A stretch of DNA of 64,000 bases, taken from NCBI GenBank assembly GCA_964106915.2, contig OZ066915.1. One strand, 5' to 3'. The notes under the pieces were generated by a model, which did no database searches, was not told the DNA's origin, and saw only the letters and a program-made list of their open reading frames with translations. Within the stretch, counting starts at the first letter, position 1. Every line of letters starts with the position of its first letter. The translations under genes were made by a program, and so were the position numbers. Of the stretch, positions 6,381 to 63,074 are shown piece after piece. Origin of the DNA: Podarcis gaigeae. Taxonomy: Eukaryota.

Positions 6381-6743
6381 GGGACGCGGGTGGCGCTGTG
6401 GGTTAAAGCCTCAGTGCCTAGGGCTTGCCGATCGAAAGGTTGGTGGTTCGAATCCCCGCCGCGGGGTGCGCTCCCGTTGCTTGGTCCCAGCGCCTGCCAA
6501 CCTAGCAGTTCGAAAGCACCCCCGGGTGCAAGTAGATAAATAGGGACCACTTACTGGTGGGAAGGTAAATGGCGTTTCCGTGTGCTGCGCTGGCTCACCA
6601 GATGCAGCTTTGTCACGCTGGCCACGTGACCCGGACGTGTCTCCGGACAGCGCTGGCCCCTGGCCTCTTAAGTGAGATGGGCGCACAACCCCAGAGTCTG
6701 TCAAGACTGGCCCGTACGGGCAGGGGTACCTTTACCTTTACCT
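6381..6743 (+). mobile_element. Full-length Sauria-type tRNA-derived SINE
   Basis: GGGACGCGGGTGGCGCTGTGG head, B box GGTTCGAATCC, (ACCTTT)n tail, 12-bp TSD TAGGATTGGGAA (6369-6380 / 6744-6755). Confidence 0.93.
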
Positions 6744-9069
6744 TAGGATTGGGAAATGAAGTTCACCAAGCTTCCAGAGAAACTTTGGGGAGGAGAGGGA
6801 CAGGAAACTGCTGTAGGATACACTCAAAAGCCTAGAAAATGTCTTGAAACTCCACTTCAATGTTTATTGTTGCATTTGTTTCAGTAAACTCAGGGACAGG
6901 TACCTTAACCTTACGGTAACCAGTCAGATAGGTTATGCTAAGAGAGAGCTACTTGCTCTGCAATGAACTTCTAGACCAATCGGCGTTCCCCACATGTAAA
7001 CCCAGCACTTTAGCCACTACTCCATTCTGAACCAAAGCCTGCAGGAATAGGTGTGTTGTGAGAATTATAGTTCAAATATTGTGCTATATTGTGTTACTGC
7101 TGAATTTCATGCATTTCTGTTGTGTTGTTTTAACTGGTTTTCATGTTCATTTTACTTTTAGAAATTTTTAAAGGCAAGTGAATATATACGGTATAAGAGT
7201 TTACAGATCAAAAGGTCTGTTAAAGGCCATAACATATCTTTGTATATTTGCTCACATTTTGTCTAAAGGAAATGCCACATTGTACACAAAACCCCTGAAC
7301 GACTCTAGTCATCTAAATGGTTCCATCTCACTCAGACATGTGAGTTATTCGTGAACATTACATTCTGGAGACCAACTATATAATTATTAATTGAAGGGCC
7401 TATTTCGTACCATTTTTCCTTGGATATCCTAGTGGGCCTTAATTGTGCTACACTTCTATACATATGTACTGTAAATAACCACCAAACTTTCACCTCACTT
7501 GAAAGAAATTAGTTGGACGATTTCTGAAATGCCGTTTTGGGACATTCAGACGCCTTGGCCCTGTAAGGATTGTCATGTTCTCAATTTTAGCATGTCAAGG
7601 GTAAGAAACAGTTTGGATGGCTATTGCGGGGTTCCTCAAGAGCATGTTCACTTTGTGTTACACTGCTTGATTTTTTAAAAAGCTTCAGTCATGGTGGTGT
7701 AGAAGAAAGAGCAGGTTGATTATTATTTTTTATAAATGCCATTTACTTTGCCTGTTTGATGGACTGCTAACAGAAAGCACTGAAAGGGTGCACTGTCAGA
7801 CTTAGTAGTTGTCAAGGTTAGGGCAAGATGTACATAGCCAGTAAGAGCAGAGTCTTAAAGCTGCTCAGAACAGCAAACAAACATATCCCAAAAGTCTTTT
7901 CCACGTCCTGAAAGTATCAACTGATCTGAGGTTTTCTGCAATTGCGGGTTACCTCCTTTCAGTTTCTTCACTGGTCAGGACCAGGTGGTGGTATTCAGGA
8001 CTAGGTGATTGCTGCCTTGCTTTCTCACGAGTCCTGACAACTATCTGCTCTCTTATATCTCCTATCTAGTGAACTTCATTAGCAGTAAACATGTTTACAA
8101 TGAAACAGGGTCTCAAGTAAACGGATGGAATTTGCTTAAGAAAACCTAATCATATTGCTATCACCTGAAAAGTTTCCTGAAGATTATTGAGCAATTACAT
8201 TTACATGCCACCCATCTCCCAGTGGTCACAGGGTTACAACCACAAGCATCATGAACAAACTTAGTTAACAGGACTTTCTACCTCTGGCTGGTAGTTTTGG
8301 AGAGACTGTATCCAGTACACTTCCAACCACTACAGTCCATACATGCCAAGAAGCAAGTTACTTGATAATGCTTTAATGTAAATAGCATTTTTATAGTGCA
8401 TCTCAGATTCCCAGAGTGGTGAGATATAATTATATGCCAACTACAGTGGCCCTCTATTTTCCCCTCCCTAATTGTCCACAGTGCGTTGGAAAGAGGACTA
8501 CAGGACCAGTGTCCTTTGTGCGCAATCTGGAGGGCAAGGTTCATGCTTCTTTGACATAGGGGGGAAATAACTGGCTTTGTGCATTTCCTGCCCTTCCAGT
8601 TTTGCACTAAAACATCAAGCCAGTAGTGTTGAATATGGGGCGTTTTTCTTAAGAAGCACCTGGTTCACTTTGGCACTAAATGATTGTTAAATAGAAGCAG
8701 GAGTAGGCATGAAGAAGTGCAACCATCCCTCACATGAGTGGTGTTTCATCACAAGGGTGGCTCTTTTTGGAGTGCTTGTGTAATTTTTATCTAGAATTAA
8801 TTAACACATGAATACTAAACCAAAAACAACTGAAGCTAATGTATGTGTTCTTCTTGGTTCATTGATCTTACAATCACTTTGTAATATTTTCAGTGACTTT
8901 AACTCTGCAGCATTACCTTATTTTGGTTTTTATTATTTTATTTATTTTGTTACTTTTTATAATTTTTTGTGTTTTGTGCTTCTTGTTTTTAACACTTTTG
9001 TAAGTCACATTAGGCTGTGTTTTAAGTGGAAGGGAGGAGTGTCAGTTATCTGAAACAACCAAATAAAAT

Positions 9070-22643: not shown

Positions 22644-23231
<588 letters not shown>

Positions 23232-29738: not shown

Positions 29739-30274
29739 CCGTATTTTTCGCTCTATAGGACACACTTTTCCCCCTCCAAAAATGAAGGGGAAATGTGTGT
29801 GCGTCCTATGGAGCGAATGGAGTGTGAGAGGGGTCGGTGAGCAAGACTCTCCTGGCTTCAGCGAAAGGAACCCGAAGCCTTTGGAGCGCAGCGCGAGGTA
29901 CGCTGCGCTCCAAAGGCTTCAGGCCGCTATCCCTGAAGCCTTTGGAGCGCAGCGGGAACTCGAGCTGCTCTCCAAAGGCTTCGCAACCTTGCCGCCGCTC
30001 CCGGACCCGTTCTGGGGTCGGGGGAAGCTCAGGCTTCACCTGCCCCAGCCCCGCGGCTAAAAACGAAGCCAAGACAGTGAGCGGGATCCCGGCTGGAGAG
30101 GTTGCGCGCGGCTAAAGAGGAAGTCAAGACATCCAACGGGATGGATCCCGCTCGCTGTCTTGGCTTCTTTGCTCTTTGGGGCTGGGGGAAAAAATATTTC
30201 CCCCCCTTTATTTCCCCCCCTAAAAAGTAGGTGCGCCCTATGGTAAGGTGCGCCCTATGGAGCGAAAAATATGG
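29739..30274. mobile_element. Young CpG-rich non-autonomous Tc1/mariner-pogo-type DNA transposon
   Basis: TA-flanked TIRs ccgtatttttcgctctatagg / cctatggagcgaaaaatatgg, with three internal hairpins. Confidence 0.88.
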
Positions 30275-33867: not shown

Positions 33868-34017
33868 NNNNNNNNNNNNNNNNNNNNNNNNNNNNNNNNN
33901 NNNNNNNNNNNNNNNNNNNNNNNNNNNNNNNNNNNNNNNNNNNNNNNNNNNNNNNNNNNNNNNNNNNNNNNNNNNNNNNNNNNNNNNNNNNNNNNNNNNN
34001 NNNNNNNNNNNNNNNNN
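33868..34017. other. Assembly gap (150 N)
   Basis: Run of n. Confidence 1.
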
Positions 34018-38609: not shown

Positions 38610-38967
38610 TGGACGCGGGTGGTGCTGTGGTCTCTTAGCTCTACAGAGTCTAGGGCTTGCTGATCAGAAGGTCAGCAGTTTGAATCCCTGCAACGGAGTG
38701 AGCTCCCATTGTTCGGTCCAAGCTCCTGCCCGTCTAGCAGTTCAAAAGCACGTCAAGTGCAAGTAGATAAATAGGTATCGCTCTGGTGGGAAGGTAAAAC
38801 GGCATTTCCGTGCACTGCTCTGGTTTGCCAGAAGTGGCTTAGTCATGCTGGCCACATGACCTGGAAGCTGTCTGCGGACAAACGCCGGCTCCCTCGGCCT
38901 ATAGAGCGAGTTGAGCACGCTACCTGAGTCCACAACTGGACCTAATGGTCAGGGGTACCTTTACTAT
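38610..38967 (+). mobile_element. Sauria-type SINE (older subfamily)
   Basis: Same head and body as 6381, TSD AACCAGTGA (38601-38609 / 38968-38976). Confidence 0.9.
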
Positions 38968-39043
38968 AACCAGTGAGATTATTGAACACTACCAGGTAGT
39001 GCCCAGCACTGCTTGGGAATTTTTAGAATTTTTTAAGCAGATG

Positions 39044-41958: not shown

Positions 41959-42888
41959 ATCTCCTATAGTTACATGTACTTTAAGCAAGAAGTTGATGGC
42001 TATGTCCTGTTGTCTGTGAGTTTCCAATAGCATATGAAAGCCTAGGGAGAAAGCTGGCCTGATCAAAGATGGCTCCTGCCACTAACTTGAGATTAGAGGT
42101 GTCATTGACAGCAAGAATGGGGATTGTTAAGACTTTGGAGGCAGACACCTCACCAGATGTTTTCTTCTGCCAATTGTCATTGCTTCTGTCTTCCCTAGAT
42201 TGAGCTCCAAGAGATACTGCTCCTATCTCCATCTTAGTCCTGAGTAGACTGCACCATCTGGGTTAGGTGTAAAAAGAATCGTAGAATTGCATGCCATTCA
42301 CTCTTTTCATAAGAAACTCTGAGCACTATACTGTATGATGCGCCATCCATGCATATAGGTTGAGCTGCATGGATGGTCAACTTGATCCACAGCGTGGGCA
42401 GTTGCAGTGGAGCACAACTTGCTCTTCCAGCTGTATGAGAACAGAATCACAGAACTCTTGATACTATCTGCAACACCAAGATCGTTGTGGCATGGCTTTA
42501 AGTCATAGTTTTAACGGGCAGTTGAAATTTCAGGATATATGCTGTCTATAGTATAGTTTGTACATGCTATAATATTTGGTGACTTTATTTTGCTTGGCTA
42601 TCAACTACAGACACTGTAGTCTGAGTATCTATGGCACAGTGCTTTTTAAAACACTCACTTATTGGCATTGCTTGCAGACTTTCAATGTAGCAGCATAATA
42701 TAGCTGCCATGATCATGGGCACCCCCATATCACTACAGAAGACCTTGTATAAAACAACACATTATGACGGTGCAATAGCTTGACCTCAGGACCATGAATG
42801 TACCACATAATGGTATGCACATACACTGATGCAAGCTTGGTTTCAGCAATGTATTATATTAACTAACTGACTAACTTGTATATTGCAG

Positions 42889-43280
42889 AGAAATGGTGCC
42901 CTGTTTGGAAATCATGTAAACCATGTTAGCAATGATACAAGGGATTCATTTCAGCAGATCAATACCACGCACCGTCCCCTGCATGTCCAAAGGCCTTCAA
43001 TTCCATCTGCGGTTGAGACTACCGAGAAAAATGTGCCTCCTCCAGCAGGAAACTCCTTATTCCACAACCACCATAGTCATCATAGCCATCATAACCACAA
43101 CTCTGTAGGGAAGCATGTTCCAAACTCAACAAATGCTAACCTCAATAATGCCAACATGTCCAAAGTGGCTAATGGAAGACACACAAGTGGTGGAAGTCAT
43201 GAGTACATATCTGAAACTGGGCATCGTTCCCACTCCAGAAGTGATCGTCATGAAAAACGTAGAAGATCTGCCAATAGGAG
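42889..43280 (+). CDS. CACNA1D: CACNA1D exon 43 (long form): [13 protein letters not shown]...KRRRSANR
   Basis: ttgcag|AGA...AG|gtaaat, 392 nt, corresponds to ORF 42883..43284. Confidence 0.96.
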
Positions 43281-43382
43281 GTAAATCTGAAATACAGTGT
43301 TTGGGTTCAGACCATTCTATATCCCAGTCACATTGTTGTACATTGTTGTACAACACATTGTTGTACATGAACTAATCAAATA

Positions 43383-46269: not shown

Positions 46270-47930
46270 GCATTCATTTATGGAGTTATTTTTTAACTGC
46301 CCTTCACCCCAACACCACAAGACAGGTTACATTTAGGACAATACCATCACATAAACATGCATAATTAACAAACCATAGAAAAGCAACAAGAGCATAGAAC
46401 AGATACAACTAGCAACACCATTTAAAGGGAGGACAAAAAAATAATATCCTATTTCACTTCCAAAGGCCAGAGGAAACAGGTTTATCTTAAGCAAAAGATG
46501 CAAAGAGGGAGTTCCACAGTTTTGGGGTCATCACAGAGAAGGCCCTGTTTAAAACTACTGGACCTGTGAGGTGGCAATACCAAGAGAACCACTTCTGCTA
46601 ATCTCAATACTTGAGCTGGCATAAATAGGAGGAGGCTATATTTGGAGTGTAGGACTAATGCAAACACCTTGAATTGGCCTCAGAAACAGACGAGCAACCA
46701 GAGGAGATGTTTCCAAACAGATGTAATATGAATCCTTGCAGCCATATTAGACATTTTTCTGACTTCCACATTCTGTGCCAGTTGCAGCTTCCAAACCTTT
46801 TCCAAGGGCACCACCACATAGAGTACACTGCAACAGTCCAATCTGGACACTATTGGAGCATGGAGTAAAGTGAGCAAGTGATTTCTTCAGGAGGAGCCAT
46901 AGCTGGCTAACCAGCTGTAGCTAGAAATAGGCACTCCTAACTACCAAGGCGGGACGCAGGTGGCGCTGTGGGTTAAAGCCTCAGCGCCTAGGACTTGCTG
47001 ATCGAAAGGTCGGCGGTTCGAATCCCTGCGGCGGGGTGTGCTCCTGCTGCTCGGTCCCAGCGCCTGCCAACCTAGCAGTTCGAAAGCACCCTTAAGTGCA
47101 AGTAGATAAATAGGGACCGCTTTCTAGCGGGAAGGTAAACGGCGTTTCCGTGTGCGGCTCTGGCTCGCCAGAGCAGCGATGTCACGCTGGCCACGTGACC
47201 TGGAAGTTTCTCCGGACAGCGCTGGCCCCTGGCCTCTTGAGTGAGATGGGCGCACAACCCCAGAGTCTGTCAAGACTGGCCCGTACGGGCAGGGGTACCT
47301 TTACCTTTACCTTTAACTACCAAGGCCACACAGGCCTCCAGCGACAGCACTGCATCCAGCAGTGCCCCCAGCTACACCATTGGTCATTCTCATCCAGAAC
47401 AGGTTGCCTCACCACTTCCCGGGCTTGGGAACTTCGAACACGTAACACTCCTGTCTTGTCTGGTTTCACGTTCAGTCTCTTGGCTCATGTTCAGCCCATT
47501 ACTGTATCCAGGCACTGGCCTAGCTACTGAAATGTCTCTCCTGATTCAGATGGTGCACAGAGAGCGCTATATGTTATCCACACATTGATGGCACCTCACA
47601 CCAAAACTCCTGATGACATTTCCAAGAGCATAGTTGTTAAAAAAAACCATGTGGAACAGAATGGAGCCCTCTGGGATGCCGTGCCATAGGTCAATCCCCC
47701 CCCCCCAGTGGCAAGCAGTAGCTTCAGTTGTGTTTTCTGTAACCAACCCTAAAGGTAGGGATGGAACTGCTGAAATACAGTGGTTAGTGCAGGAGAATAC
47801 CATGGTCTACAGTGGTCAAAATCCAAAGAGAAGTCAAGGAGAATGAGCAGGGTTGCACTCTTTCCCAACAAAGGCCATCAACCAGCACAACAAAGGCAGT
47901 TATGGTACCATGACATACACTACCCAAAAA
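46270..47930 (-). mobile_element. Degenerate L2-clade LINE (RT domain to 3' end), interrupted by a SINE
   Basis: HGIPEGSILFHM...LGNVIRSFGVRCHQCVDN (decayed GVPQGS and YADD motifs) and HAPIVSRLDCCSVLYVVVPLEKVWKLQLAQN. Confidence 0.85.
46951..47313 (+). mobile_element. Full-length Sauria-type SINE (young subfamily) nested in the L2
   Basis: Near-identical to 6381-6743, 13-bp TSD TAACTACCAAGGC (46938-46950 / 47314-47326). Confidence 0.93.
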
Positions 47931-48174: not shown

Positions 48175-48516
48175 GGGACACGGGTGGTGCTGTGGGTTAA
48201 ACCACAGAGCCTAGGGCTTCCCGATCAGAAGGTTGGCGGTTCGAATCCCCGTGACGGGTGAACTCCCTTTGCTCGGTCCCTGCTCCTGCCAACCTAGCAG
48301 TTCGAAAGCATGTCAAAGTGCAAGTAGATAAATAGGTACTGCTCTGGCAAGAAGGTAAATGGCGTTTCCATGTGCTGCTCTGGTTCACCAGAAGTGACTT
48401 AGTCACGTTGGCCACATGAGCCAGAAGCTGTCACTGGCTCCCTCAGCCAGTAAAGCAAGATGAGCGCCACAACCCTGCGACTGGACCTAATGGTCAGGGG
48501 TCACTTTACCTTTACC
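48175..48516 (+). mobile_element. Sauria-type SINE (older subfamily)
   Basis: Head, B box, ACCTTT tail, TSD acaatgccgtt / acaatgctgtt. Confidence 0.9.
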
Positions 48517-49695
48517 ACAATGCTGTTTAGCTTCCCTTTGCTAGTTGTGAAATAGATTTGCAACAAACCAACAGAAACAATAGCCCAATTAAATGTGATT
48601 CTGTTCTAAGGCTTAGTATTATAAGAATAAGCCACAACAAACCTCAGGGAAGTGATGAGAAAATATATTAAAAGGTGTGGGATAACAATTACTTGACACA
48701 ACAAATAAGGATGCTCAGTAAACTCATCAACTGGAAACAACCATAATGCTAAACCTTGGTTTAGAGTTACATGCAAACCAAGCCATAGATGAGGCCTGCA
48801 TCTTTGTTTCTATCTTGTTTCTATCCTATTTGCCTCACCCCTGGGGGTAACATAATCTAAGGTTCAATGCTGGAAGACTTAAGGTTGCTATGCACAAGAA
48901 GGAAACATTGTCAGATGCAACATGTGACAGGTGCGATTTGAATTTTGAGATCACAAGGAAGTGAATTAGTGTTGCATTTGTTCCTGGAGAAGCAAACTTT
49001 CCCTTATATACACAGGCTTATAGTACTGATACAAATTAAATAAATACTACTGTTATTCGGTGACTTACTTACCGGCACATGTCTTGTCCTTTTCACTCCC
49101 TCTGTTAACATAATTGCCATGGGCTTCTTGATTAGGGATACCGGAGAAGGATGAAATTAACTCAAGGAAAAATCAGTTGTAAAGAAGGTTTCCTAAATTA
49201 CTTAATTCACACCCAGCATGATACATTATTTTGCATCATGATTTTATATTGGTTATCTCAGCTGTGCGATCTAGGACACTGTCTTGGGTTTCTGTCAACA
49301 CTTTTGAGACATAATTGGCCTTTCAATGTGTTTTCTTCAAAGTGTCAAAAAACAAAACAAAACCCCACACCATTAAAGCTGTGGTTTTTATTGAGTGTAA
49401 TGTAATTTTGCATTATCACACTTCCCTCCTTGGGCCAGGCAGACTGCCTTGGAGAGTTATCAGAACTTTGGATTTTATGGATTATTAGCCTTTGCAGCCT
49501 GACACTTCAAAGATCAATCTGTCTATCCTAATTGTAATACCAGAAAATGACCTAATTGTAGCTAGCAATCAGTAAGTTACTCCTTAAGACAACCCAAAAC
49601 TATTTGCCACCTTTCCTGCAATTGACTAGTAGTTGCTCCTCTTGAAACTGTCTCCAGAAAATAGTAATCACCAATTCAATCTTTTCATGTTTCAG

Positions 49696-53446: not shown

Positions 53447-53550
53447 GGTAAAGGTAAAGGTAAAGGTAAAGGGACCCCTGACCTTTAGGTCCAGTCGTAG
53501 CCGACTCTGGGGTTACGGCGCTCATCTCACTTTATTGGCCAAGGGAGCTG
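53447..53550 (-). mobile_element. 5'-truncated Sauria-type SINE (3' ~100 nt)
   Basis: (GGTAAA)n followed by the reverse complement of the SINE 3' body. Confidence 0.85.
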
Positions 53551-54701
53551 GATATTTTGTCTTTTTCTGTTAAATCAGAAGATTGTTTAGGACAGGCACT
53601 CCCTGATGCTTTGGGGGGAGCATGTTCACTTCACCTGTTACCTGTTCCCCATGGATGAGAACCCAAGGCAAAATGACTGAGGACTGGTTTAAGCCAAGGT
53701 GCAGAACCTCCACCCCCACGAAGCCGTTTCTCCCAAACCTTGCCCACCATCAAAAGTCACTTGTATAATCAGTTGAAAATCCTATGTTGGCTGTTTCAAG
53801 CTACAAAAGGGGGGCATGCAGCCCTAAAGCAGCAGGATTTAACACCCTGCTCGGCTGACAATGGGGGGGGATGTGTGTGTTAAATCCTGCACAGCTTGGC
53901 GGGTTTCATACAAGCACCTTCCCGTTTCGGGAAGGGGCTTACATGGAATCTCTTGCTACAACAAAGGCTTTTTCCTCTGTTGTAAAAACGGATTCAGAAA
54001 ATGATTTGCATCAGAATTTCCTGCAAAGATGAAGGGGGGAGATGTTCATTTTAGCAGCACTTTGCAAGGTACACCTGATGTCATTGTGATATCAGGTGAT
54101 TCACAAATGGGTAGATCGCCCATCTGTCATATTTGCCCCATGAGGACAATCCCCAAAAGGATCTGGCCTGTGGAGACAAAACTATTTTCCCCACCCAATT
54201 TAAGCTATATCCTCCCTATGTGCCATACTGTTTCATGTCAACTTTTGTCCCATTGTGTCTACAAAATAGGACAGAAGCTGAAAGCCGCCAATACTAACTA
54301 GACAACATAGTTTGGCTGCATTCTTTATCCATTTACAGGAAGAATCACGTAAGATAGAGTGACTTTGATTACAACTATGGACTCCAGAATTTCTCTGAAA
54401 ACATTAGTGTATTCCAGGTGGCCCTCAGTCATGCATCATCCCAACTCCTCTCCTAGCTTCATCAGAATGTCACTTACAAACTCAGCCACACACAGCTTAT
54501 GGGGAAGGCCTTCTTTACACAGTTGTGGGACAATTCAATATCTAGGGAGTAGATTTTCAGAAGGCACTTGAAATAAAAATAATGCAACATAAAAAGGTTT
54601 GCACTTTCTAAAATGAATTGAAGTATTGAAGCTTTGTCACTGTTTGCTTTTCATTTCTTATCCTAAGTGCCAAATTAATGTTTATAGTATTACTTTCTCA
54701 G

Positions 54702-54995
54702 GTACTTATATCTGAAGGATTAGGACGGTATGCAAAAGACCCGAAGTTTGTTTCTGCTACGAAACATGAGATTGCTGATGCTTGTGACATGACTATTGAT
54801 GAAATGGAAAGTGCTGCGAGTAATCTTCTCAATGGGAACATTAGCAATGGAGCCAATGGTGACATGTTCCCCATTTTAAATAGACAAGATTATGAACTTC
54901 AAGACTTTGGTCCTGGCTATAGTGATGAAGAGCCAGAAACTGGTAAATATGAAGAAGACTTAGCTGATGAAATGATATGCATTACGACCTTATAG
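54702..54995 (+). CDS. CACNA1D: CACNA1D last coding exon 49 (DCRD 'DEME', PDZ ligand ITTL, stop TAG)
   Basis: tctcag|GTA CTT ATA TCT GAA...ATT ACG ACC TTA TAG: [17 protein letters not shown]...[12 protein letters not shown]. Confidence 0.98.
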
Positions 54996-60599: not shown

Positions 60600-60651
60600 C
60601 AGAGTGGCTGGGGAAACCCAGACAGATGGGCGGGGTACAAATAATAAATTA

Positions 60652-60694
<43 letters not shown>
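60600..60694 (+). repeat. LINE/SINE 3' tail fragment ending in an (ATT)n microsatellite
   Basis: cagagtggctggggaaacccagacagatgggcggggtacaaataata followed by (ATT)n at 60652-60694. Confidence 0.65.
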
Positions 60695-60697
<3 letters not shown>

Positions 60698-60715
60698 AGA
60701 TCTGTACACAGCATT

Positions 60716-61475
60716 TGTCAGGGGTTCAGAAGGAGAGACACAGGAGGGGGAGCAAATGGAGAGTGAGGAGGAGGAGTACGAGGGGGGCGCAGGCAGTGAC
60801 AGTGGCCAGAGTTATTCCACAAGCCTCTCTAGCGAATCGGAGGACTCACAGAAGGGAGCGCCGGTGGCCAGAGCAAGGGAGATTCCAAGGGAGAAACCTC
60901 AAGAGGGAGGGGCCAGCGGGGAGTCCCTGAACAGCAGCTGGAGATCAGGGCCAGCGTCTCCACCAGAGCGCAGTGGGGAGGGGGAGTCCCAGGAGTCGGG
61001 ACCAGTGTCCTCACCACCAGAGGGAGGAGAGGAGTCAGGTTTGGCAACACCCACATCAGGAAGCGGGGAAACGGTCAGAAGGAAAGTCACCGGCTGGGCG
61101 CGCGCGCCAAGTTCAAATGTACAGGAGCGCGGCACAGCGGGGAGCCCGGGAAGGGAGCCAGGTCCTAAAGCCCGCCGGAGGGAGGGGCAAGACTCAGGAG
61201 GCTCCGCGTCAGAGGAGTCCAGGAAGGAGGGAACCCCAGAGGGCAGAAGGACCCAACGCAGGGAAGAGCAGCGCAAGAGGTGGAGCCGGGCTAGAATCTT
61301 AAACTGGTGTGGGTGGAGCAGTGAGTCAGAGGGGACTTAGCCGGTCCAGCGTTAAGACGTGGGCCTGCGCGCCCAGAGCTTGGAAATGGAAACTAAACTT
61401 CAATAAAGACTTTTGTATATAATATCCACTGGGCGTTGGTCCTCTGTGAGCTGGGACCTAGCGGCAGTCCTGACA
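60716..61475 (+). mobile_element. Solo LTR (760 bp) of an LTR retroelement
   Basis: TGTCAGG...CCTGACA termini, 5-bp TSD GCATT (60711-60715 / 61476-61480), AATAAA at 61402, CpG-rich. Confidence 0.88.
60756..61340 (+). CDS. LTR-internal ORF, 194 aa, unknown function (acidic, S/G/P-rich, basic C-terminus)
   Basis: Good Kozak context (gcaaATGG), uninterrupted to TAG, AATAAA about 60 nt after the stop. Confidence 0.45.
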   Translation: MESEEEEYEGGAGSDSGQSYSTSLSSESEDSQKGAPVARAREIPREKPQEGGASGESLNSSWRSGPASPPERSGEGESQESGPVSSPPEGGEESGLATPTSGSGETVRRKVTGWARAPSSNVQERGTAGSPGREPGPKARRREGQDSGGSASEESRKEGTPEGRRTQRREEQRKRWSRARILNWCGWSSESEGT

Positions 61476-63074
61476 GCATTAAATCTATACTTTGTATTTT
61501 AATATCATACTACATCATAGTGCTGCTTTTGCCTCACAAAGCAGCAAATTATAGGTGTTAAATTAGGGAAGTTCATTTTACACAGCTTTTCAAAACAGAT
61601 TCTACAGAGGGCAAATGCAAAAATATATCCTAGAAATATGGGGGGGGGGGAGAAGATTAGCAGCACACTAGAAAATGTTTTAAAGCATGTAATTACATTA
61701 GCTGCATTTTAAATAAGGATTCTGAACATGTAATAATTATTCTAAACTACTGTACCTGTTTAGAAACATCAGGAATTCATCTTCTACAGTTGCTTTTTAA
61801 TATTATATACAAAGGTCTCAACCCAGCGTAAGTTAATCATGAGTTCATTAAATGAAATCAATGAAACTCAAGTTATCTGGGACATTATCCATTACTAACT
61901 TTGCAAGGTTGTGCCAACAATGTACAAAACAGAGAACAGTGATCTGAGAAATTTAACTTGGACAAAGTTGCAATACCCATTTATGAAATATATGAGCAAA
62001 GTGTAATGAGTAAGGGTCAAGTGATTTTAGTCCAATGTGTGACTACAAGATCCAGGGATTTCCTACTAGATGACATAGCAGTGCTGGTATTTTTCTCTTA
62101 CTTTTGATCCTATGTGGAAAATACACAAGGAGGATTTCCTTGATTAGTCAACATGGGACTACCATTTACGTAAGCACCCAGACCAAAGTTTGGCTAGTAA
62201 GTGATAGCCCTCAGTGATAAGCAATTCTTCCTTGACAACTAAGTAATAAAGATGAACACAGCAGCAGAACGAAAGTGAAAAAACAGCAAGCTGCTATTAG
62301 AAAATATATTACACTGAAAGCCAGATAATTAAAAACAAGTGACACAATGAAACATCCATAGCTATAAACAATTAAAATATGTTCATGGTAACCTTTGTTA
62401 TAGTCAATAACAGAAAAGGTACATTTAAGATTGACCTATAAATTCATTCAAGCAAGCGATAAAGAATTATCATTATTATTTCTATGAGGTTCTTTATTCA
62501 GAGGTTCTGATGAAATCTAAAATGGTGCAATTTGGATTTATGCCAAAAATTTACAACCCCAGCTCTATTTCATTATCATGTCAAATCCTGTGACTGCAGT
62601 AGCCCAAGATCCTCACCCTACTGGAAACCCAGAGTCTTCTGTCCCCTTTGGCCTTGGCTAGAGTGTGCCCTGTGAAAACTGCTGGGGATTTTACTGCATG
62701 AAGAAATGATAGCAACACCATCCCTCCAGCCTAATGAGTACAACCAGGTAGTTTAGGTTAAGGTGTTAAGGAACATCATTTTATCCAGGTGTCCTTTTCT
62801 GCTTTCAATTGCCTGTCACTAAATTATCTGCCATGTATAACTTGTATCAAAGCAGATTAGGTCACAATTTTAAGGAGGAGGGAAGGAACTTGCATTCTCA
62901 CTAGCAAGGCAGAAGCACCAAAAAGGGGTCCTGCATTTCTGTCCTTTTCTACTTTTTAAATAATTTCCCTTCAATTAAAGTGGGACATAATAAATGGGAA
63001 GAAACTATGCTAACTCGTTTATTCCCTGGGTGTTGTTTATTATTATTATTACTATTTAAAGTTTATTAAATGTA

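Follow-up and report, generated by a model that had tools for sequence, protein, structure and literature searches.

What kind of protein, if any, is encoded by the 194-aa ORF that lies within a solo LTR of the lizard Podarcis gaigeae? An earlier note on this DNA had read the ORF as an uncharacterised accessory protein with a Rev/Rex-like basic end, spread by every solo LTR of its family, and had added the caveat that it could be a by-product of G/A-rich composition. We analyzed the LTR within a 64,000-nt stretch of contig OZ066915.1 (assembly GCA_964106915.2), here called the window. Taken as a whole, the account that we consider likely is that of a young solo LTR from a lacertid Gypsy chromovirus, in which the Pol frame runs through the polypurine tract (PPT) into the LTR and finishes in a likely import or tethering segment.

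A recent solo LTR from a high-copy family

The 760-bp element reported earlier, with TGTCAGG and CCTGACA ends and a perfect 5-bp target-site duplication, is readily seen in the sequence, with GCATT on both sides. The chance of a match of 5 bp is about 0.001 given the composition of the flanks. The span of 60711..61480 first assigned to the element includes the duplication, and the LTR proper is bounded as given in Table 1. The repeat has the features expected of a solo LTR, namely TG..CA ends with a short inverted repeat, a duplication, an empty site elsewhere, and a high copy number. The ends and the AATAAA near the 3' end also fit the Sushi-clade patterns in table 3 of PMC3601003, which gives att patterns of TGTYANR and CNTNACA and an AATAAA close to the 3' end. 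The window copy presumably became solo through LTR-LTR recombination. A sigma-70 promoter scan, which is irrelevant to a lizard, returned nothing.

Table 1 Features of the solo LTR and its reading frame in the window.
Feature	Position	Strand	Remarks
Target-site duplication GCATT, 5' copy	60711..60715	+	present only once where the site is empty (runs X1 and X3)
Solo LTR, 760 bp, of a probable lacertid Gypsy chromovirus	60716..61475	+	TGTCAGG/CCTGACA ends; summed contig depth thousands of times that of the flanks
Remnant of the Pol frame (very probable), 207 codons, LTR base 2 to TAG	60717..61340	+	corresponds to the Pol/integrase C-terminus of full-length relatives
ATG ORF, 194 aa, 585 nt	60756..61340	+	starts 40 nt inside the LTR; lies within the Pol frame; only some subfamilies have this ATG
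Terminal basic stretch and predicted helix, RRTQRREEQRKRWSRARILNWC	61245..61310	+	candidate import/tether motif, in register with the sister family; helix 164-181 of low confidence
AATAAA polyadenylation signal	61402..61407	+	74 nt before the LTR end, a placement shared with Sushi-clade LTRs
Target-site duplication GCATT, 3' copy	61476..61480	+	

The insertion site was compared across public sequencing runs, for which 19 of the 21 listed rows contain the window or part of it and three contain half or more of the window's words. Two of the four runs compared (X1 and X3, from two studies of the organism best matching the window) contain an empty site with one GCATT, where a contig passes from 60715 directly to letters equal to 61481-61510. 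In run X5, from another organism, 60603 is connected directly to 61473, so that both the LTR and the repeat tail preceding it are missing, and in run X7 the left flank of the insertion is uncovered. All told, three other lizard runs lack the insertion, which is therefore recent and not fixed; this bears out the earlier description of a young solo LTR belonging to a lizard LTR-retroelement family. In X1, summed contig depth was 3.6e5-1.1e6 over the LTR, whereas the flanks had 60-117, and X3 and X5 gave comparable ratios; this quantity is not a copy number but marks a very high-copy family. Two further readouts were given no weight: the table of LTR indels, which contained zero indels but in which short contigs drop such variants, and the low-depth joints inside the LTR, where, among those with known inserted letters, the one within the ORF has a net length of 51.

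The end of a separate high-copy repeat, with an (ATT)n tail, lies at 60600-60700, 15 nt upstream of the LTR. Contigs that continue before 60600 numbered 378 in X1, 333 in X3, and 407 in X5. This repeat end resembles the 3' end of an L2-like LINE. Its absence from X5 and presence in X1 and X3 indicate two successive insertions at one spot. Further upstream, the + strand contains exons of a gene for an L-type calcium channel alpha-1 subunit at 22644-23216, 42871-43284, and 54630-54995 (Pfam CAC1F_C, 80.9 bits; Ca_chan_IQ weak); the protein ends at 54995, and its ending is CACNA1D-like. The LTR, 5.7 kb downstream, shares the orientation of this gene and supplies an additional AATAAA. A tRNA-headed repeat resembling Sauria SINE has copies at 6381-6744, 38633-38972, 46951-47313, 48194-48517, and 53452-53514. 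The window also contains an assembly gap of 150 N (33868-34017) and a G+C-rich 40-nt inverted repeat with a 7-nt spacer (29854-29940), the latter within an element that is bounded by 35-nt inverted arms (29737, 30276) and is possibly a non-autonomous DNA transposon.

The ORF very probably continues the Pol frame of Gypsy elements

The ORF itself is as first described, with an ATG 40 nt inside the LTR, 585 nt to a TAG, and an AATAAA afterwards. The start context had been called good, but it is only half so, with G at +4 and C at -3. The stop-free frame opens at LTR base 2, and its first residues are VRGS. Its charge profile shows the acidic N-terminal half and basic C-terminal end noticed before, while the repeated SGPxSxPP units amount to only two, the second of which is lost in relatives. 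Neither a Pfam match nor a usable ESM Atlas match was found for the window tail. The AlphaFold model of the tail is disordered (pLDDT 51, pTM 0.11), with one low-confidence helix at 164-181, which covers the terminal basic motif.

We searched for proteins related to this frame. Among 781 candidates of similar length, four matched, at identities of 99, 67, 63, and 64%, and a profile search of longer proteins yielded four matches among 7988 candidates, every one a Gypsy Pol model of Podarcis muralis. An HMM run against 1.84 billion representatives likewise gave four matches, all to this Gypsy family, and no distant homologue. The named homologues of the window tail come from Podarcis. Three of the Pol models (P0006, P0007, and P0008), which represent related subfamilies with tails 61-66% identical to that of the window, have the domain order protease-RT-RNase H-integrase-SH3. 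This is the Pol order that defines Ty3/Gypsy, one of the classes that the earlier note had considered (Gypsy, BEL or ERV). Gag in related models carries Retrotrans_gag/Ty3_capsid/DUF4939, and no env was seen in the models.

The 207-aa frame of the window aligns from its first residues to 205-206 with the extreme C-termini of 12 Pol models, at 61-66% identity. We examined 31 members of three clusters that hold 48 in all, and found a chromodomain-like segment in 18, the junction GGFEGGMD/VRGS in the same chain in 15, and the terminal motif at the chain end in 12. The Gly-rich part of the junction is the translated PPT, and VRGS is the start of the LTR, encoded by the window LTR from base 2. Most Pol records are automated gene models. 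One 415-aa ORF (P0044), on an unspliced 1384-bp contig, contains the chromodomain-like segment, linker, junction, and tail in a single frame. In P0008, P0040, P0041, and P0043, which like P0039 and P0042 are visibly stitched models, the same frame precedes Gag, where a 5' LTR would put it.

The closest Pol model found is only about 67% identical to the window tail, so for the exact subfamily of the window the fusion is an inference. In X1 and X3, a G-rich purine tract that fits the junction directly precedes the LTR start in contigs with a likeness of 85% or more (8 and 6 contigs, respectively); the tract did not show in the X5 and X7 contigs (3 contigs each). The presence of the tract in contigs of the best-matching organism suggests that the window's own subfamily shares the Pol-into-LTR layout. 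The position of the Met varies by subfamily, being 14 in the tails of the window and P0047, 25 or 36 in others, and absent in some. Given the continuity with Pol and the shifting Met, we conclude with high confidence that the ORF is not a separate gene and that the frame in the window is the last ~207 codons of Pol, here called the Pol tail.

Chromodomain decay and a sister family with a shorter tail

We analyzed the segments preceding the tail. In full-length models of the window family, 345-363 aa follow the chromodomain, vs a median of 14 aa in 113 relatives, these being the ones among 121 that aligned to the chromodomain end; several other long tails among them look like fusions. The aromatic cage was readable in 97 of the 121. 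The 88 relatives outside the family keep the three cage positions in 87, 88 (87 of them W), and 83 cases, respectively. In the window family, the first and second cage aromatics are lost in all six members, including the W that 87 of the 88 outside relatives keep, and the third position is aromatic in one member. The family therefore lacks the three aromatic cage residues that characterize Group I chromodomains. Against a Pfam Chromo cut-off of 25.1 bits, P0010 and P0049 scored 15.7 and 14.5 bits, and P0044, P0046, P0047, and P0048 gave no match. Within the linker before the PPT (~1136-1289 of P0006), the aromatic/acidic words FFDDWLFTPT, SYWWDD, and WRRKWL are kept in all subfamilies shown and could be further binding motifs.

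An integrase tree of 27 of 28 rows (P0095 left out), midpoint-rooted and built without named references, placed the window family as sister to P0050/P0051 with support of 100/98. The window family grouped with chromodomain-bearing elements, and with elements of lepidosaurs and amphibians at 95/89. The sister family (P0050, P0051, and P0095, all from Podarcis muralis) keeps the cage W and has lost the third aromatic, and its Pfam Chromo scores of 31.7-44.5 bits lie above the cut-off. Its Pol reads 81-115 codons into its own LTR. Two of its three models end in RRRVSVK[ED]LLCW, located 10-15 residues from the end and matching RKRWSRARILNW of the window family, so that both are of the type R-x-R-[WV]-S-xxx-L-L-x-W. 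The motif was in register in seven of eight pairwise alignments between the two families (shuffle p 0.001-0.036), having been defined only after the alignment was inspected. An HMM test of the motif gave a modest result, its score being reached by 12 of 300, 4 of 298, and 241 of 299 shuffles, the last for a truncated model. Among amphibian models, P0103, P0114, P0163, P0111, and P0132 have 60-135 Arg/Ala/Pro-rich residues past an intact chromodomain, possibly through read-through into the LTR.

Purifying selection on the Pol frame

Substitutions were taken from 40 of 67 rows, of which 31 fall within the frame, and each was scored singly against the window sequence. The 31 in-frame sites comprised 15 synonymous and 16 non-synonymous changes and no stops. 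The pN/pS was 0.32-0.43 in the Pol frame (p 0.002-0.016, depending on transition weight) and 0.8-1.4 in the two other + frames; as the sites were pooled over runs and are not phylogenetically independent, these values are a signal rather than an estimate. The Pol frame in the LTR is thus under purifying selection and is not a compositional accident.

We also gauged the length of the ORF against dinucleotide shuffles (5000 each). An ATG ORF of at least 194 aa arose in 0.3-0.4% of shuffles, and a stop-free frame of at least 194 codons in between 2.7% (for the whole LTR) and 8.3% (for its G/A-rich part). This indicates that composition helps the ORF to be long but is insufficient alone. The low pN/pS confined to the Pol frame speaks against the caveat that the ORF is a G/A-rich by-product.

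The tail evolves fast: subfamilies that are 93-95% identical in their integrase cores have tails only 51-71% identical, and most of the tail may therefore be spacer. Selection could act merely on keeping the frame tolerable, or on features of the LTR DNA. A rival explanation is passive read-through: Pol would have lost its stop and run on into a U3 poor in T, leaving a tail that has no function but is tolerated, its frame staying open through composition and weak selection against harmful residues. Such an origin would fit the T content of the window ORF (10%), the 3-8% of shuffles with a stop-free frame as long, the disorder in the model, and the rapid divergence; amphibian relatives, too, have tails of 60-135 aa, which have no visible shared motif. 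We nevertheless consider it improbable, since pN/pS is reduced in the Pol frame only, with zero stops, and since subfamilies at 51-71% identity, and the sister family too, retain both the terminal motif and the point at which the tail stops, although its length changes.

Possible roles of the Pol tail

In the related subfamilies, Pol is read from integrase through the PPT into the 3' LTR. In the mechanism that we propose, protease cleavage would leave a mature integrase in which SH3 and the cage-less chromodomain are followed by ~330 acidic, disordered residues and a basic terminal helix. Nuclear entry of the integration complex, and perhaps its attachment to chromatin, would depend on this helix, in the manner of the Ty1 integrase end and the CR motif of CRM elements. 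Reasoning from position and precedent, we regard a role of the tail in import or tethering as an evenly balanced proposition.

The Ty1 precedent comes from the description of the integrase C-terminus in PMC7459421, in which a bipartite NLS overlaps the AC40-binding segment. As in the window tail, the C-terminal domain described there is poorly conserved and has basic clusters at its end. Ty1 differs in being a Copia rather than a Gypsy element and in having a tail that is not LTR-encoded, and no sequence similarity is claimed. Two further ideas were set aside. An involvement of CK2, an idea drawn from the preprint 10.1101/2022.07.13.499880, was unsupported, as neither CK2 sites nor proline-directed (S/T-P) sites were enriched in the window tail (p 0.64 and 0.21, respectively). 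The notion that SSPP resembles the targeting motif of Ty5 was dropped, as the paper searched for it contained 0 occurrences.

The tail might instead serve particle assembly or the handling of genomic RNA, as a disordered acidic/basic chaperone carried on Pol. The acidic N-terminal half, the basic C-terminal end, and the disorder all suit such a function, which fits all of the sequence evidence. Import or tethering is favored by the coincident decay of the chromodomain and by the location of the tail at the integrase C-terminus, which carries the NLS and the AC40-binding segment in Ty1 and the CR motif in CRM, and we consider the assembly role quite improbable.

The anatomy of the LTR and the AATAAA near its 3' end make U3 the most likely location of the coding frame, which would place it upstream of the start site that the LTR itself provides, and a solo copy is therefore probably not translated. 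Solo LTRs do spread the coding sequence, as had been proposed, but in this probably untranslated position.

Rev of HIV and Rex of HTLV, and likewise nef and MMTV sag, which overlap the LTR, are separate genes expressed from spliced RNAs. The window frame resembles them in its Arg-rich stretch and in a coding sequence within U3, and differs in being the end of Pol and in having no NES pattern. An arginine-rich motif is thus what remains of the Rev/Rex-like reading, as there is no conserved separate start and a leucine-rich nuclear export signal was found in none of the three tails tested (hydrophobic fraction 6-9%). A stand-alone, Rev/Rex-like RNA-binding protein, made from the LTR's ATG or a spliced sub-genomic RNA so that solo LTRs would be mini-genes, could draw on the ATG ORF followed by AATAAA, the Arg-rich end, the selection on the frame, the Met found within the first 40 tail residues in many subfamilies, and the Met codon in the PPT junction of full-length elements, but is very unlikely in view of a frame that extends upstream into Pol, a Met that moves or is missing and has C at -3, tails with neither an NES-like pattern nor a Pfam match, and an element that is Gypsy with no env seen in the models.

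Comparison with known chromoviruses

The element is most likely a V-clade/Sushi-type vertebrate chromovirus, a group described in PMC2774666. It shares the Gypsy order with SH3 and a chromodomain-like segment, the LTR ends, the position of AATAAA, and the Gag domains with V-clade/Tf1-Sushi chromoviruses. As differences, the window family has lost the cage and has ~360 aa after the chromodomain, compared with the median of 14 in relatives.

An overlap of Pol with the 3' LTR is already known in plants, where CRM elements have an LTR-encoded CR motif at the integrase end (PMC3059260); PMC3605345 is a further cited precedent for the Pol-tail explanation. In the subfamilies related to the window, the Pol ORF extends into the 3' LTR as it does in plant CRM-clade group A (CR motif/CHDCR), and the putative targeting motif is LTR-encoded in both. 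The likeness is one of layout only, and membership is not claimed because the host and the tree neighbours are vertebrate and fungal-type. In plant CRM, gain of the CR motif goes together with loss of a regular chromodomain, and the window family has lost its cage. Unlike CRM group A, however, the window family resides in a vertebrate, and a cage-less remnant of the chromodomain persists upstream of the PPT.

Neither the window family nor an overlap between Pol and LTR in a vertebrate Gypsy element was described in the literature surveyed; Repbase/Dfam and the original Amn-ichi/Sushi papers, which may describe the family, were outside its scope. Short Pol/LTR overlaps have been noted for vertebrate Gypsy families in repeat databases or older papers.

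These likenesses allow a broader scenario, which we offer tentatively and regard as somewhat unlikely. A vertebrate chromovirus may have independently repeated the CRM transition, in which the methyl-lysine cage was lost and a chromatin-targeting module, a basic helix with S-xxx-L-L-x-W at its end on a disordered arm of ~350 aa, arose in the 3' LTR. The sister family, with a partial cage, 100-115 LTR codons, and the same motif, would be the intermediate, and the module would steer the insertion of a family that has thousands of copies and is polymorphic in lizards.

Significance

The reading of an accessory gene in every solo LTR is removed by these results. They also carry a warning for annotation, as the Podarcis 'hypothetical proteins' CAI5765087.1, CAI5786812.1, and CAI7934966.1 are pieces of the Pol tail. 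In the literature surveyed, a switch from a chromodomain to an LTR-encoded module is described for plant centromeric elements alone. If the tail targets integration, lizards would provide a young, high-copy animal case in which an LTR-encoded integrase module replaces the chromodomain, with a graded sister family available for comparison.
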